Below, piece by piece: positions 18,320 to 24,406 of a stretch of DNA of 64,000 nucleotides (within the stretch, counting starts at the first letter, position 1; each line of letters begins with the position of its first letter). Below the pieces are notes generated by a model. The model did not search any database and was not told where the DNA came from. It saw nothing but the letters and a program-made list of their open reading frames with translations. Where the stretch lies: assembly GCF_003668955.1 (NCBI RefSeq), contig NZ_RAWO01000002.1:343605-407604 (forward strand). Reading direction: 5' to 3'. The translations under genes were made by a program, and so were the position numbers. The DNA is from Corallococcus sp. AB038B. Lineage in GTDB: Bacteria > Myxococcota > Myxococcia > Myxococcales > Myxococcaceae.

Positions 18320-18514
18320 ATGAAGGCTCCCGACTGGAAGCCATTGGAAGCCTCGGTGCTGCGCGAGCGGCTGGAGGAGGTGAAGGCCCTGCTGCTCCAG
18401 GCAGCGGCGGTGGGCGTGGCCCAGGACGCCGAGCGGCTGGAGAAGCTGATGGAGCTGGAACAACGCACCCGGGAGGACGCGCGTGGCCGAGTTCAACGAC
18501 GCCGCTATCGCTGA
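18320..18514 (+). CDS. Small coiled-coil hypothetical protein (64 aa); existence uncertain
   Basis: The ORF begins 5 bp after the spike stop. It overlaps the next ORF by 32 bp in another frame. Composition is Glu/Leu/Arg-rich. Confidence 0.3.
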   Translation: MKAPDWKPLEASVLRERLEEVKALLLQAAAVGVAQDAERLEKLMELEQRTREDARGRVQRRRYR

Positions 18515-20093
18515 GCTCCACGGCGCGCTGGAGGCCTGCTGCGAGGACCTGGCGAAGGCACTGGAGGATGCGGAAGGCACGGACGCCACTGGCACCGAGG
18601 CCGGGGCCGGGCCCGCGTGGCGTCCGCTGCTGATCGGCGTGCCGCCGGGGCTGGAGCAGCTGGTGGGCATCATCAAGCCGCCGCTGCAGATCATCATCGC
18701 GGTGCTCCAGTTCGTGCAGGCGCTGCTCCAGGCGCTGGCGGCCATCCTCCTGGGGCTGCCGGATCCGTTCCGGGCGCTCATCCTCGCGGCCTACGAGCTG
18801 CTCAAGGACATCATCAACGACCTGCTCAACGCGGGGGCGTACCTCTACGCGGACGCGCCGGGCATCGGGCCCACGGAGACGAACCTGGCGGAGACGGGCT
18901 TCATCCCGAACATCCCCAAGGACTTCAAGGCGGGCTTCGCGCTGGAGCGCCCGCCAGTGACGCCGGACGGCTTCGCGCGCTGGGCGGGGCGGTTCGTCGC
19001 GTCCTTCGATGATCCGGGGGATGACTCGCGCCCGACGGTGACGGACGGCGCGCCGGTGCAGGCGGTGTTCATCGTGATGGCGGCGCCGTCGCTGGATGCG
19101 CTCCGGCAGGCGCTGTACCTGCTGGGCAAGCTGCTCAACATCAGCGCGTTCAAGAAGGCGTTCGAGAAGTACCCGAAGGGCGCGTTGGATCCGCGCCGCA
19201 GCCGGGCGCGTGGAAGGTCAGTGAAGCCGGACTGGAAGTCCGCGCGCATGCGGGACCTGTTCCCGGACCTGGAGAAGCTGCTCATCCTCCCGGAGGCGCT
19301 CAGGGCGCTGCTCCTGTCGGTGGACAACCTGGCGACGCTTCTGCGGAGTCTCGCCGCCGCGATGCAGGACAAGGTGCAGGTGTTGCTGAAGCTGGCGCAG
19401 GCGGTGCAAGCCATCATCGACCTGCTGAACGCGCTCAAGTCCGCGGGGATGTACGCGCTGCCGGTGTCGACGACGGGCGGAGTGGCGGGGCTGAAGCAGG
19501 CCTTCCTCACGGCGACGAACCGGCCCCCGGGAGGCTACGTGGGAGGCATCTGCCTGCTGGCGGCGGGCCCCAACCTGGCGAAGGCCGCGATGCTCTGGGA
19601 GCTGCTGGGCCTGTCCGCGGCGATGGAGCTGGCGTCGGGAGACCTCACGCTCCAGGACGTGAAGAAGGCCCTGCTGGAGAGCGAGGCGGCGCAGGTGCTG
19701 GAGGCGAACACGGACGAGGTGAAGGACGCCTGGGGCAACCTGAAGACGACGGCCCAGAAGAAGGCGGACAAGTTCGTGAACGCGGTGGAGAAGGCGCCCG
19801 AGAGGTTCGCGAAGGCGGTGGGGCGCACGCCAGAGGAACTGAAGGCCGCCGCCGAGCGGAGCCGCTCCGCGCTGGTGGAGGTGCTGGACCAGTCGAAGGA
19901 GCACGTGGAGGAACAGAAGGAGATTCTGGAGGGCATTGCGTCCACGAAGCACGCCCAGCGCCGGGGAGGGCGTTCGCTGGCCATCGGCTTCGGAGGTCCG
20001 GGCGCGTCCGAACGTCCGCCGAGTCCGCAGCCCCCCGCGGCTGACACGTCCACACCACCACCCGGCACGCCCAAGAAGGGAACCGGCCCGTGA
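18483..20093 (+). CDS. Hypothetical protein (536 aa), alpha-helical with hydrophobic segments, lineage-specific
   Basis: GC3-biased codon usage in the operon frame. Hydrophobic stretches LLIGVPPGLEQLVGIIKPPLQIIIAVLQFVQALLQALAAILLGL and GICLLAAGPNLAKAAMLWELLGL. C-terminal coiled coil and Pro-rich tail. The start (GTG 18483) is uncertain. Confidence 0.5.
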   Translation: MAEFNDAAIAELHGALEACCEDLAKALEDAEGTDATGTEAGAGPAWRPLLIGVPPGLEQLVGIIKPPLQIIIAVLQFVQALLQALAAILLGLPDPFRALILAAYELLKDIINDLLNAGAYLYADAPGIGPTETNLAETGFIPNIPKDFKAGFALERPPVTPDGFARWAGRFVASFDDPGDDSRPTVTDGAPVQAVFIVMAAPSLDALRQALYLLGKLLNISAFKKAFEKYPKGALDPRRSRARGRSVKPDWKSARMRDLFPDLEKLLILPEALRALLLSVDNLATLLRSLAAAMQDKVQVLLKLAQAVQAIIDLLNALKSAGMYALPVSTTGGVAGLKQAFLTATNRPPGGYVGGICLLAAGPNLAKAAMLWELLGLSAAMELASGDLTLQDVKKALLESEAAQVLEANTDEVKDAWGNLKTTAQKKADKFVNAVEKAPERFAKAVGRTPEELKAAAERSRSALVEVLDQSKEHVEEQKEILEGIASTKHAQRRGGRSLAIGFGGPGASERPPSPQPPAADTSTPPPGTPKKGTGP

Positions 20094-23460: not shown

Positions 23461-24188
23461 ACGCACTTCCTCCAAGACAGCGATTGGGCCACCTGCTGCG
23501 CTCCCTCGCGAAACAGCTTCCGGGCCAGCTCGACGGCCTATTGGAGAACGCCAGGTTCAAGGACGGCGCCGCGGCGCTCCAACGACTGGCGGACCCGGCG
23601 CACGTGGAGCAGGCACTGACACGCATGTCGCCAGAAGAAGCCGGCTGGCTCGCGGACCTGCTCACCGAGCGCTGGTCCTGGATCGCCGAAGTCCAACTGG
23701 AGCCCGAAGTGGCCATCGTCGCGCCAGACGAACTCTGGCTGGGCGCGGAGGCCATCCGCGTGCCGTTGTCGCTCGCGGCGGTGGGACTGGACGAAGGACT
23801 CGAAGCGGTCTGGGAAGGCGCTGTCCTCCCAGGTCCACCCGCGTCCACTGCCACGCTCTTGGCGAGACCTCCCGAAGGCAAGACACCCGGAGTCGCCCGG
23901 GTCCGGGCCCAGGTCCGAGCGAGCGTGAAGGGTCAGCGCTGCGTGCTCATCGCGCAGGCGCAGGTCGCATTGAGGCGCCCGTCGGTGGTGGTGAGCGACG
24001 ACCGGCGCAGGCTGCTGGTCCAGGACCACACGGGACGTCCGGCCGTGGGCTGCCGTCTGGAGATAGGCCCGGACGTGCACCTCACTGGCGCAGGGGGCCT
24101 GGTGGACCTGGAAGTCCCAGCGCAGCCCGGTGTGTCGCTCAAGCTGGAAGGCATCCCGGCCGGACGCATTCCCGGAGGCAACCCATGA
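23457..24188 (+). CDS. Hypothetical protein (243 aa)
   Basis: ATGA coupling at 23457-23460 and at 24185-24188. Coding bias is consistent with the rest of the operon. Confidence 0.5.
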   Translation: MNALPPRQRLGHLLRSLAKQLPGQLDGLLENARFKDGAAALQRLADPAHVEQALTRMSPEEAGWLADLLTERWSWIAEVQLEPEVAIVAPDELWLGAEAIRVPLSLAAVGLDEGLEAVWEGAVLPGPPASTATLLARPPEGKTPGVARVRAQVRASVKGQRCVLIAQAQVALRRPSVVVSDDRRRLLVQDHTGRPAVGCRLEIGPDVHLTGAGGLVDLEVPAQPGVSLKLEGIPAGRIPGGNP

Positions 24189-24406
24189 AGACAATGACGT
24201 CGCAGACGCGGAAGACACCCGACCGCAAGCCCGCCATGAACAAGGCCATCGCGCCGTCGCAGCAGCCCAAGACGGACACAGCCAGGGCCCAACTGGGAAC
24301 CGCGGCCAAAGGGCCCACGATGAAGGCTGCGGCCGGGGGCAGCTTCAAGGCGAAGAGCGCCCCCCGGGTCACGGCGAACCCCAATATCCGGATGCCGAAG
24401 AAGTAG
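24185..24406 (+). CDS. Small basic Lys/Ala/Pro-rich hypothetical protein (73 aa); last gene of the + operon
   Basis: ATGA-coupled to the upstream gene. Followed within about 75 bp by the palindromic hairpin element. Confidence 0.35.
   Translation: MKTMTSQTRKTPDRKPAMNKAIAPSQQPKTDTARAQLGTAAKGPTMKAAAGGSFKAKSAPRVTANPNIRMPKK

Follow-up and report, generated by a model that had tools for sequence, protein, structure and literature searches.

The window analysed here, a stretch of 64,000 nucleotides from Corallococcus sp. AB038B, carries genes of a contractile injection system (CIS). In Pfam searches of the window and of the upstream locus (L013), sheath, tube, gp25, baseplate J/I and spike genes were all present, and the operon also contains a 2535-aa DUF6519 (eBAP5) fibre-type protein. 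Among solved structures, the sheath is closest to 9ezm, followed by entries including 8bky and 8bl4 (E~1e-85), which we take to be sheaths of cytoplasmic Streptomyces CIS. The spike gene is followed by a block of six plus-strand genes, p64, p536, p720, p403, p243 and p73 (Table 1). The first-pass annotation had listed five ORFs after the spike, of 536, 720, 403, 243 and 73 aa; each of these is present on the plus strand at that length, but the block has a sixth member, since position 18320 is the start of a separate conserved 64-aa gene. The tight coupling described at that stage is borne out, with overlaps of 4 nt at the junctions between the successive ORFs p536, p720, p403, p243 and p73; p64 and p536 overlap by 32 nt.

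Table 1. Genes of the spike module and of the adjoining convergent region in the window.
Feature	Coordinates	Strand	Description
p113	16581..16922	+	113-aa helical protein, first gene of the spike module; codon-usage call
p70	16919..17131	+	conserved protein of about 69-70 aa; codon-usage call
central spike, gpV/gp5 type	17128..18315	+	Phage_base_V E=6e-24, Gp5_trimer_C
p64	18320..18514	+	64-aa helical protein, RRRYR C-terminus
p536	18483..20093	+	536 aa, phage-homologous core plus CIS-specific extensions
p720	20090..22252	+	720 aa, specific to one CIS lineage
p403	22249..23460	+	403 aa, intrinsically disordered, Pro/Arg-rich
p243	23457..24188	+	243 aa, helical N-terminal part, C-terminal part reads beta-rich
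p73	24185..24406	+	basic Lys/Ala/Pro-rich peptide, last gene of the operon
three convergent genes	24615..27403	-	504-aa FGE-sulfatase/HEAT-like, 251-aa and 162-aa proteins
giant ~2620-aa protein	27452..35323	-	annexin E=1.7e-20; candidate payload
798-aa WHD + CDC48-like AAA+ ATPase	35556..37952	-	sub-threshold Pvc16_N-like C-terminus

Codon-usage and GC3 signals were seen in p536, p720, p243 and p73, and comparison with two Corallococcus genomes indicated purifying selection on all six ORFs (dN/dS 0.15–0.49; 0.20–0.27 for p64, 0.15–0.21 for p243 and 0.18–0.33 for p73). Given the codon signal, the purifying selection and the conserved order in distant loci, all six ORFs are genuine genes, and the earlier caveat that they might be non-coding or non-conserved falls away. 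Searches of Pfam, NCBIfam and PHROGs returned no significant family for p536, p720, p403, p243 or p73, in agreement with the first description of the block, and no toxin, enzyme or eCIS_core domain in any of the six genes; the same domain search does detect eCIS_core in a gene inserted at the Micromonospora locus (E=5e-26). In p64, the RRRYR C-terminus is retained in 6 of 6 aligned loci, and the p536 start lies in a CGTGGC motif that does not vary across 10 loci, the start codon being GTG in nine and ATG in one (L017).

The spike, composed of an OB domain, a beta-helix and a hydrophobic C-terminal extension, is preceded by two small genes. The first, p113, lies outside the interval covered by the first-pass annotation; it has no family match, precedes the spike in every related locus and is 38–76% identical to its orthologues. 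The second, p70, has orthologues at 37–93% identity, shows 4-nt overlaps at both ends and is translationally coupled to the spike gene; its family search returned DUF6897 alone, weakly (E=0.015). The synteny comparison proposed earlier found the order p113-p70-spike-p64-p536-p720-p403-p243 in about 15 loci of two phyla, from Corallococcus, Minicystis, metagenomes and a Micromonospora assembly (among them L001–L004, L014–L020 and L072, the last being Micromonospora), always with the block next to the spike, and none of the loci with sufficient sequence lacks p64, p536, p720, p403 or p243. Contamination of the assembly is an unlikely explanation for the Micromonospora occurrence, considering its 77% GC and the existence of a second similar locus (L002). 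The constant position beside the spike in two phyla and the purifying selection support the initial proposal that the block genes act together with the CIS; judged from sequence, the block genes, the spike and the two small genes p113 and p70 make up a spike module that is conserved in one CIS lineage. The description of the block as lineage-specific ORFans has to be abandoned, as p536 has 85 homologue clusters across Myxococcota as well as phage relatives, p720 has 72 representatives among 1.84e9 proteins, and the module reaches Micromonospora.

The payload-type genes around the block vary from locus to locus. The giant annexin protein, which also has a sub-threshold DUF6782 metallopeptidase-like match (E=4.6e-5, 23.2 bits vs a cut-off of 27), is convergent to the block in the window and co-directional in L018, where it overlaps the p243 homologue. 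In C. coralloides, neither this gene nor an eCIS_core gene occurs here, and in the Micromonospora locus p720 is separated from the p403-like gene by an inserted gene for an eCIS_core protein of 1472 aa. The convergent trio of 504-aa, 251-aa and 162-aa proteins adjoins the block in several loci. Because it is the recognisable payload-type genes that vary around the block, whereas the presence of the block genes is constant across loci and lacks the variability of payloads, the cargo role once suggested for the conserved genes is unlikely.

In canonical eCIS, the first-pass annotation noted, this position is taken by tape-measure, ATPase and cap genes. The ATPase was found 11 kb downstream on the other strand, but not the tape measure or a clear cap: neither was recognised in the locus by Pfam and other family searches, and no Pvc16_N (DUF4255) cap domain was detected in the structural operon. 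The 798-aa WHD+AAA protein, convergent to the module in L072 as in the window, is likely the CIS ATPase (Afp15/Pvc15-like). The only Pvc16_N signal is the match in this protein (E=7.5e-4, 19.7 bits vs a cut-off of 27), and its C-terminal 179 aa have no PDB sequence match.

In Afp/PVC, the 3' region (afp13–afp18) encodes fibre, tape measure, AAA+ ATPase, cap and toxins, with afp14 following the fibre gene in the Afp cluster. The present locus resembles these systems in its sheath, two gp19-type tubes, CIS_tube initiator, LysM/X, hub, gp25, J and P2_I genes, in the fibre-type protein and the CDC48-like AAA+ ATPase, and in the large candidate toxin beside the ATPase. Unlike in Afp/PVC, the gpD-like hub and the gpV-like spike each have a gene of their own, about 20 kb from one another, and these flank the baseplate and fibre genes on opposite sides. 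The spike comes after the fibre and is accompanied by eight conserved genes unknown in Afp/PVC, the ATPase and the candidate payload lie in a convergent operon, and PAAR, like tape measure and clear cap, is not recognisable.

Members of the p536 family are 484–607 aa long, and their alignment contains 46 invariant columns, with a conserved core at about residues 45–375. Residues 45–367 are homologous to phage-like proteins of 312–379 aa (hhalign probability 99.9%, E=8.5e-33 over 292 columns; phmmer E=1e-18 to 1e-30), with W46, SFDDPGD..RP, PDW and GxY.L as common motifs. The CIS versions add about 45 aa at the N-terminus and a C-terminal amphipathic helical extension of about 170 aa with a G.RSLA motif, both of which the phage proteins lack. 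In the phage-like contractile-tail modules, the p536-like gene invariably comes directly downstream of the gene for the central spike, with gp25/J following it. One of these loci (L075) has the order tape measure, hub, hub, spike, a gene of ~90 aa, p536-like gene, gp25, J and I, in which the separate tape measure has 850 aa (phrog_991, E=1e-73) and homologues in L073 and L074, and the spike is homologous to that of the window (BLASTP E=1e-10). The adjacency of spike and p536-like gene also occurs in L078, a locus with a sheath, so that the window arrangement of spike, p64 and p536 is matched in all four IMG/VR loci compared (L073–L075 and L078). In jumbo contigs (L076, L079 and L080), the p536 domain is fused to a hydrolase domain and lies upstream of gp25-like and J genes. 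A tblastn search of 50,697 GenBank phage records found no close relative, the sole match being an uncultured jumbo phage at 24% identity. The phage family has the whole 300-residue core and the position downstream of a homologous spike in common with p536, but is followed directly by gp25/J, whereas p720, p403 and p243 come next in the CIS. Between CIS loci, p536 matches the spike in conservation among the nearer metagenomic loci (identities of 59% vs 62% in L001), whereas it is the less conserved of the two in L002 (35% vs 57%). Because the homologues follow a spike gene, in three loci alongside a tape measure of their own, the most likely identity of p536 is that of a baseplate protein associated with the spike/hub and acquired together with the spike, the spike association being read from gene order only.

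We tentatively favour, at somewhat less than even confidence, the reading that the genes constitute a spike module in which p536 would be spike/hub-associated and the others would be structural or assembly proteins, not toxins. A different assignment, unlikely in our estimation, would make p536 the tape measure, equivalent to Afp14/Pvc14, or a tape-measure-derived, Sle1-like ejected protein, housed in the tube lumen and with p64 as its chaperone. The first-pass annotation had considered a tape-measure-like nature for this protein, and the locus offers some grounds for it: p536 comes after the fibre, as afp14 does, lengths within the family vary little (median 538 aa), p536 is rich in helices, one of them hydrophobic, and the operon contains no other recognisable tape measure. 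The window protein matches the phrog_305 tape-measure profile weakly (E=1.7e-4), and 14 of the 47 homologues examined weakly match four tape-measure PHROGs (best E=2.1e-7). For Streptomyces CIS, a particle-packaged helix-rich protein with a hydrophobic hairpin and TMP-related effectors with a helical hairpin have been reported (PMC13277306). Against this stand the weakness of the PHROG matches, their absence in most members and their location in differing regions (on re-scanning, 3 of 10 members matched, at E>1e-3), the lack of a match to any Pfam tape-measure family, and a globular core whose 46 invariant residues are unlike typical tape measures. The AF2 model, helix-rich at pLDDT 65, found no match in a structure search against viral proteins. 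A tape-measure function of p536 is also disfavoured by its phage homologues, whose tail modules contain an unmistakable separate tape measure of 850 aa.

The block could also be viewed as a cargo island of the T6SS vgrG type, with p536 and/or p720 as effectors travelling on or behind the spike and the small proteins as chaperones, adaptors or immunity proteins, but this, too, is unlikely. As in vgrG islands, the genes are tightly coupled directly 3' of the spike, and a true eCIS_core effector is inserted among them in Micromonospora. The p536 helix, marginally membrane-competent in Myxococcota, and the weak apolipoprotein and alpha-synuclein matches of the C-terminal region, which are consistent with an amphipathic helix, would fit an effector as well. 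The linked genes are, however, invariant across two phyla at dN/dS 0.15–0.2, while payloads vary, and they include p536, a phage baseplate-module protein with phage homologues that lie within baseplate gene blocks. Besides the absence of toxin or enzyme domains, a Pfam search of the block did not detect the T6SS adaptor domains DUF4123, DUF1795 and DUF2169.

A third alternative, which we consider very unlikely, regards the block as a membrane-docking or firing adaptor of a cytoplasmic CIS, either CisA-like or a minimal T6SS-like anchor, with p536 in the inner membrane. It draws on the proximity of the sheath to 8bky/8bl4, presumably from cytoplasmic Streptomyces CIS, and on the hydrophobic helix of p536. 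A long disordered region occurs in CisA, as it does in p403 (PMC12237407). Membrane attachment had been suggested at first on account of two hydrophobic stretches in p536; over 47 homologues we find a single marginal helix, with a median dG_app of +0.25 kcal/mol and thus near competence, while the second-best segment, at +5.65 kcal/mol, is far from membrane-like. In actinobacterial and phage homologues, the helix is insufficiently hydrophobic (+1.8 to +4.9), and none of the block proteins has a clearly membrane-like hydrophobic segment, so that membrane attachment is weakly supported and p536 is disfavoured as an anchor. The fibre-type protein suggests an extracellular target (PMC12923769). 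The CisA architecture is likewise absent: CisA is bitopic with a periplasmic domain, and the block has neither, the hydrophobicity scan revealing no such topology beside the one marginal helix. Streptomyces CIS clusters do contain conserved but uncharacterised genes and are without a typical tape measure (PMC10066040, PMC12237407), but the block is unrelated in sequence to CisA and to the Sle1/Sle2 architecture. Upstream of the sheath, Sle1 is paired with a DUF4157 protein, a feature that the block does not have, and the large fibre-type protein of the present locus has no counterpart in Streptomyces CIS.

The p720 family (13 clusters in one search; full-length members of 673–871 aa) has a long helix at its N-terminus and a helical bundle, is beta-rich in the C-terminal half and contains conserved motifs, but no relatives were found among viral, PDB or Pfam entries or outside the spike module. 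Its AF2 model is poor (pLDDT 55), and fold searches with the models of p536 (pLDDT 65) and p720 gave only generic helical bundles. The p243 protein, with 55% identity to its Minicystis homologue and, by sequence inspection, a 189-aa homologue in Micromonospora, has no PDB or Pfam match, and p73, with a net charge of +14, was seen only in Corallococcus and its nearest metagenomic relatives. The Pro/Arg-rich p403 is intrinsically disordered, as described earlier, but conserved at its ends: it has a helix and a PPLPP motif that are conserved, the helix being N-terminal, and a basic helix conserved at the C-terminus, while the middle, a variable spacer of 250–350 aa, is hypervariable and carries RRxRVPRP-type motifs.

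In the absence of a tape measure and of a clear DUF4255/Pvc16_N cap from the structural operon, where the sole Pvc16_N signal of the locus is the sub-threshold match in the ATPase, one of the block genes could fill either role. The specific assignment, p403 as an extended, disordered length ruler replacing a helical tape measure and p243 or p720 as the cap that terminates tube and sheath, is very doubtful: conserved ends around a variable spacer are ruler-like, but the length of p403 varies from 351 to 453 aa between lineages, none of the three proteins resembles any cap or tape measure in sequence or fold, and two uncharacterised upstream proteins of ~660 aa and ~286 aa are equally candidates. 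The reading of p403 as non-coding DNA in which a high GC and low T content left a long frame open by chance could appeal to its missing codon-usage signal in every frame, to a T content of only 11%, which eases long open frames, and to its lack of annotation in three Corallococcus records (L003, L019 and L020). This reading is effectively refuted: the five Corallococcus genomes compared all retain the frame, their indels being in-frame throughout, homologous termini occur in six other loci (L001, L014, L002, L018, L016 and L072), dN is 0.01 vs a dS of 0.18–0.26 over the N-terminal 45 residues, and an equally long frame arose in just 10 of 20000 composition-matched shuffles.

Returning to the spike module with a spike/hub-associated p536, the baseplate component would have entered the CIS together with the spike, with p64 as its small co-translated partner. 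The CIS-only additions, comprising the p536 extensions, p720, the disordered p403 and p243, may form an interface connecting the spike/tube-lumen end to the payload or to the AAA+ ATPase loading machinery. A more elaborate version, which we hold to be quite improbable, has the spike, p64, p536, p720, p403 and p243 form a spike-bound complex, of a kind not described before, that docks the payload, with p403 as an extended, disordered tether or ruler that runs into the tube in place of a helical tape measure. Within this complex p536 might, with similarly low probability, be a partner of the spike, inherited from phages, and engage the target membrane when the system fires.

CIS are the subject of engineering efforts aimed at protein delivery, and only for a few lineages is it known what governs payload loading, particle length and the decoration of the spike. 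The lineage described here, found in Myxococcota and at least one Micromonospora assembly, has a spike split from the hub, eight companion genes and no recognised tape measure or cap. The link between p536 and phages offers an experimental handle on an uncharacterised baseplate-module family common to phages and CIS. Since p403 is systematically missed by genome annotation, comparative surveys of such loci are incomplete. If the spike-bound complex with p403 as ruler proved true, it would represent a novel way in which CIS control their length and load cargo, and a phage baseplate-module protein that is widespread but uncharacterised would gain a role.

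A phage-tail-like operon occupies the plus strand from the start of the window to 24406, and its last six genes, which lie 3' of the spike gene and are named here by protein length in amino acids (p64, p536, p720, p403, p243 and p73), very probably form a conserved functional part of the contractile injection system (CIS) rather than cargo or chance ORFs. The window has a G+C content of about 70%, and its best protein matches are from Corallococcus. The first-pass annotation had described five ORFs of 536, 720, 403, 243 and 73 amino acids beginning at 18320; all five are present with these sizes, and the start coordinate is valid but belongs to the separate gene p64, bringing the block to six genes. 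Adjacent genes of the block overlap by 4 nt, with two exceptions: spike and p64 are separated by 4 nt, and p64 and p536 share 32 nt. Scanning 16400-24800 for promoters and terminators gave nothing beyond the shuffled expectation.

Features of the CIS locus in the window and in related or phage-like loci
Feature	Locus	Position	Strand	Remark
Baseplate_J	window	57-2402	+	gene already begun at window start
TIGR02243-like baseplate protein	window	2399-4921	+	
Tail_P2_I with Kelch repeats	window	5304-8945	+	
2535-aa DUF6519/beta-helix protein	window	8942-16549	+	
p113	window	16581-16922	+	small gene
p70	window	16919-17131	+	small gene
Phage_base_V/gp5-type spike	window	17128-18315	+	395 aa; directly 5' of block
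p64	window	18320-18514	+	64-aa ORF
p64/p536 overlap	window	18483-18514	+	32 nt
p403	window	22249-23460	+	
~2620-aa giant protein	window	27452-35323	-	annexin, E=1.7e-20; DUF6782 metallopeptidase-like, 23.2 bits (below the 27-bit cut-off)
798-aa WHD + CDC48-like AAA+ protein	window	35556-37952	-	C-terminal Pvc16_N match below threshold
~660-aa gene	L021	4373-6349		directly 5' of sheath
~660-aa gene	L022	529-2523		directly 5' of sheath
~660-aa gene	L025	726-2729		directly 5' of sheath
~660-aa gene	L013	3-1385		directly 5' of sheath
Phage_GPD hub	L013	6929-8116		395 aa
Split p720 homologue	L016	11452-13652		two overlapping ORFs
Giant annexin gene	L018	15546-21623	+	follows p243 homologue
163-aa gene and 1472-aa eCIS_core gene	L072	12194-17100		inserted between p720 and p403-like genes
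WHD+AAA homologue	L072	19809-22136		convergent to module
Spike of phage-like locus	L075	8393-9538		precedes p536-like gene
Protein with p536-like domain	L076	7775-12415		
Protein with p536-like domain	L079	7886-12577		
Protein with p536-like domain	L080	9935-12409		

The DUF6519 domain found in the 2535-aa protein corresponds to a domain described under the name eBAP5, which anchors tail fibres of extracellular CIS (eCIS) to the baseplate (PMC12923769). The upstream part of the operon, read from related genomes, runs in the order ~660-aa gene, sheath, two gp19-type tubes, ~286-aa gene, ~68-aa gene, CIS_tube, LysM/X, Phage_GPD hub, gp25 and J, and the genes preceding the ~660-aa gene are not CIS-related. 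The sheath has its closest PDB match in 9ezm, followed by 8bky/8bl4, which we take to be Streptomyces CIS sheaths. The locus is an Afp/PVC-like CIS. Its first gene encodes the ~660-aa protein, which has no family match; a DUF4255 cap gene is expected at this position, 5' of the sheath, in many eCIS loci, and the ~660-aa protein could be the missing cap or some other novel component.

The block genes had been called lineage-specific ORFans, a description contradicted by the searches and by the gene order shared among many loci. The p536 family comprises 85 clusters (484-607 aa), including members from Kofleriaceae, Polyangiaceae and Minicystis rosea. For p720, a word-indexed search returned 13 clusters, and exhaustive HMMER searching across 1.84 billion representatives returned 72 matches, the full-length ones measuring 673-871 aa; in the latter search the family closed at 72, with no outlier carrying other domains or another architecture, and a second word-indexed search with alignment added no members. 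Gene neighbourhoods follow a single order together with the spike (~110 aa/~70 aa/spike/~64-86 aa/~536 aa/~720-815 aa/~350-450 aa/~180-245 aa), which is seen in Corallococcus (L003, L004, L019, L020), in metagenomic contigs with 31-58% identity to p720 (L001, L002, L014, L015), in Minicystis (L016) and in two further contigs (L017, L018). The same whole spike module is carried by an assembly named Micromonospora sp. NPDC005806 (L072, 77% G+C). By eye, p70 of L002 reads almost identically to that of L072, and L002 is therefore probably actinobacterial as well. The module spans at least two phyla, and across them the six genes co-occur with the spike, with the same order next to it, in agreement with the earlier proposal that they act with the CIS. 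The basic peptide p73, rich in Lys, Ala and Pro, was found only in Corallococcus, L001 and L014. The presence of the module in the Micromonospora assembly reflects either horizontal transfer or contamination. In Minicystis rosea, the p720 homologue is divided between overlapping 195-aa and 538-aa ORFs that lie in different frames, a split that is either real or due to a frameshift or sequencing error.

Two small genes 5' of the spike, p113 and p70, belong to the same module, even though they lie outside the coordinates first assigned to the block. The 113-aa product is helical and the 69-70-aa product has a weak DUF6897 match; both genes are always found 5' of the spike and are absent from the phage loci, and neither has a family match over threshold in Pfam, NCBIfam or PHROGs.

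One protein of the block is of phage-tail origin and is spike-linked in phages too. The p536 family alignment contains 46 invariant columns within the first 360 residues, followed by a variable amphipathic helical C-terminal region of ~170 residues with a G.RSLA motif. Scanning IMG/VR with this alignment revealed relatives of residues 45-365 in eight loci. The p536 profile matched a 312-aa protein of the phage-like locus L075 with 99.9% probability (E=8.5e-33, 292 columns), with W46, SFDDPGD..RP, PDW and other motifs in common. L075 has the order 850-aa tape measure (phrog_991, E=1e-73), two hubs, gp5/gpV-like spike, ~90-aa gene, p536-like gene, gp25, J and I, which L073 and L074 share; in L078, where a sheath is present, the p536-like gene directly follows the gp5-like spike. 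The spikes of the CIS and of L075 are homologous (E=1e-10). On low-GC jumbo-phage-like contigs of 190-424 kb (L076, L079, L080), the p536-like domain lies within proteins of 824-1563 aa encoded upstream of gp25-like and J genes, and in L076 the protein adds a hydrolase domain (phrog_18474, E=1.8e-35). Among GenBank phages, tblastn with p536, p720 and the phage-type p536 homologues matched only one unannotated uncultured jumbo phage, and viral relatives of p720 were not found. Judged from these alignments and gene orders, the p536 core is a phage-tail protein whose gene is tied to that of the central spike. A tape measure, or an ejected protein derived from one, was also considered for p536: 14 of the 47 members match tape-measure PHROGs weakly (best E=2.1e-7), in inconsistent regions and with most members giving none. 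The phage relatives, however, sit beside a separate canonical tape measure, which makes this assignment unlikely.

The overlap between p64 and p536 measures 20 nt in L016 and L018. Both of its frames are conserved, one encoding RRRYR* and the other (A/D)IAEL. All 10 loci compared share an invariant CGTGGC motif around the start of p536, the start codon being GTG in nine and ATG in L017. A programmed frameshift joining p64 to p536 was considered and dropped: the p536 start codon is kept in all 10 loci and the residues after it are conserved, so that no frameshift need be invoked.

Hub and spike are encoded by separate genes ~20 kb apart, with gp25, two J-like genes, P2_I and the 2535-aa fibre-type gene between them, whereas in Afp8/VgrG they are fused or adjacent. 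After its beta-helix, the spike continues for ~110 residues (residues ~285-395) as a hydrophobic extension rich in Met, Ala, Gly and Pro, and by eye the L075 spike also has a long Ala/Gly/Pro-rich C-terminal extension. The extension of the CIS spike is a possible docking site for p536.

In canonical eCIS, the position of the block had been said to be taken by tape-measure, ATPase and cap genes. An ATPase lies instead in the convergent minus-strand operon 3' of the block, but nowhere did the locus show a recognisable tape measure or PAAR, or a convincing cap. The probable CIS ATPase is the 798-aa WHD/AAA+ protein, which may include a fused cap-like domain, and its Micromonospora homologue is likewise convergent to the module. 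The giant annexin/DUF6782 protein of the same operon, which three smaller genes complete, is a candidate payload. It adjoins the block in L001 and L020 as well as in the window; in L018 its gene comes after the p243 homologue, is co-directional with it and overlaps it start-to-stop, and in C. coralloides (L019) it is absent and a lanthipeptide cluster flanks the block instead. In Micromonospora, the 1472-aa protein inserted within the block has an eCIS_core domain (DUF4157, PF13699, E=5e-26). Given the convergent AAA+ gene and the differing flanks and insertions between loci, the ATPase is present elsewhere in the locus and the payload-type genes are its variable parts. Payload-type genes and ATPase are separate from the block. 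We consider it improbable that the block itself is a cargo island.

A still lower probability attaches to the block being a membrane-docking adaptor. The 536-aa protein had been described as having two hydrophobic stretches and as a possible membrane anchor or tape-measure-like protein; p536 as an integral membrane hairpin protein was rejected on dG_app analysis.

The remaining proteins gave few homology clues; p720 and p243 had no Pfam, NCBIfam or PHROG match, and their family profiles had none in the PDB. No block protein reached threshold against Pfam, NCBIfam or PHROG, PDB searches, whether run with the family profiles of p536, p720 and p243 or using a mixed CIS/phage alignment, gave only compositional coiled-coil/amphipathic-helix matches, and all-against-all hhalign of 17 protein families of the locus indicated no paralogy (best probability 8.5%). 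The p720 structure model (pLDDT 55) is too poor for fold assignment. As read from their sequences, p403 is net-basic (+17) and disordered; its N-terminal helix is conserved, its C-terminal helix is basic, and it contains a PPLPP motif as well as repeated RRxRVPRP-like motifs. p243 has a helical N-terminal part and a C-terminal part that may be small and beta-sandwich-like. That p403, p243 or p720 supplies the missing ruler or cap has a probability as low as that of the membrane-docking adaptor.

All six block genes are real. GC3 and a codon-usage log-odds model back p64, p536, p720, p243 and p73 as coding; for 22400-23400, the p403 stretch, the codon-usage model gave no coding signal in any frame. 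Five Corallococcus genomes keep the p403 frame unbroken, all indels being in-frame, and in metagenomic, Minicystis and Micromonospora loci homologous N and C termini recur on either side of a hypervariable middle rich in Pro, Ala, Arg and Ser. Over the whole of p403, dN/dS comes to 0.35-0.49, and over its first 45 residues to ~0.04-0.06; an open frame of this length arose in 10 of 20000 composition-matched shuffles. The intact frame, homologous ends, low dN/dS and rarity in shuffles identify p403 as a gene, leaving a negligible chance that the 403-aa ORF is non-coding. It is unannotated in the L003, L019 and L020 records and uncalled in Minicystis, and is intact and conserved in all of them. 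The other ORFs from p113 to p73 have dN/dS values of 0.15-0.56 or lower, p70 showing no non-synonymous change relative to L019. Loss or frame-inconsistent conservation of the ORFs, which would have spoken against the block, is not what orthologous loci show: they keep the ORFs from p64 to p243.

Compared with described systems, the locus differs in the hub/spike split, in the placement of the spike after the fibre and in the eight-gene companion set on the spike, a module that we did not find described in the searchable literature. It shares with Streptomyces CIS clusters the presence of conserved unknown genes and the lack of a typical tape measure (PMC10066040, PMC12237407). No relationship in sequence or architecture was seen to CisA or Sle1/Sle2 of Streptomyces (PMC13277306).

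For the function of the block we favor, tentatively, a division into two parts. p536 together with p64 would be a spike/hub-associated baseplate component, and the CIS-specific parts, namely the p536 extensions with p720, p403 and p243, may link a protein payload, or its loading, to that end of the particle where the spike or tube lumen lies.
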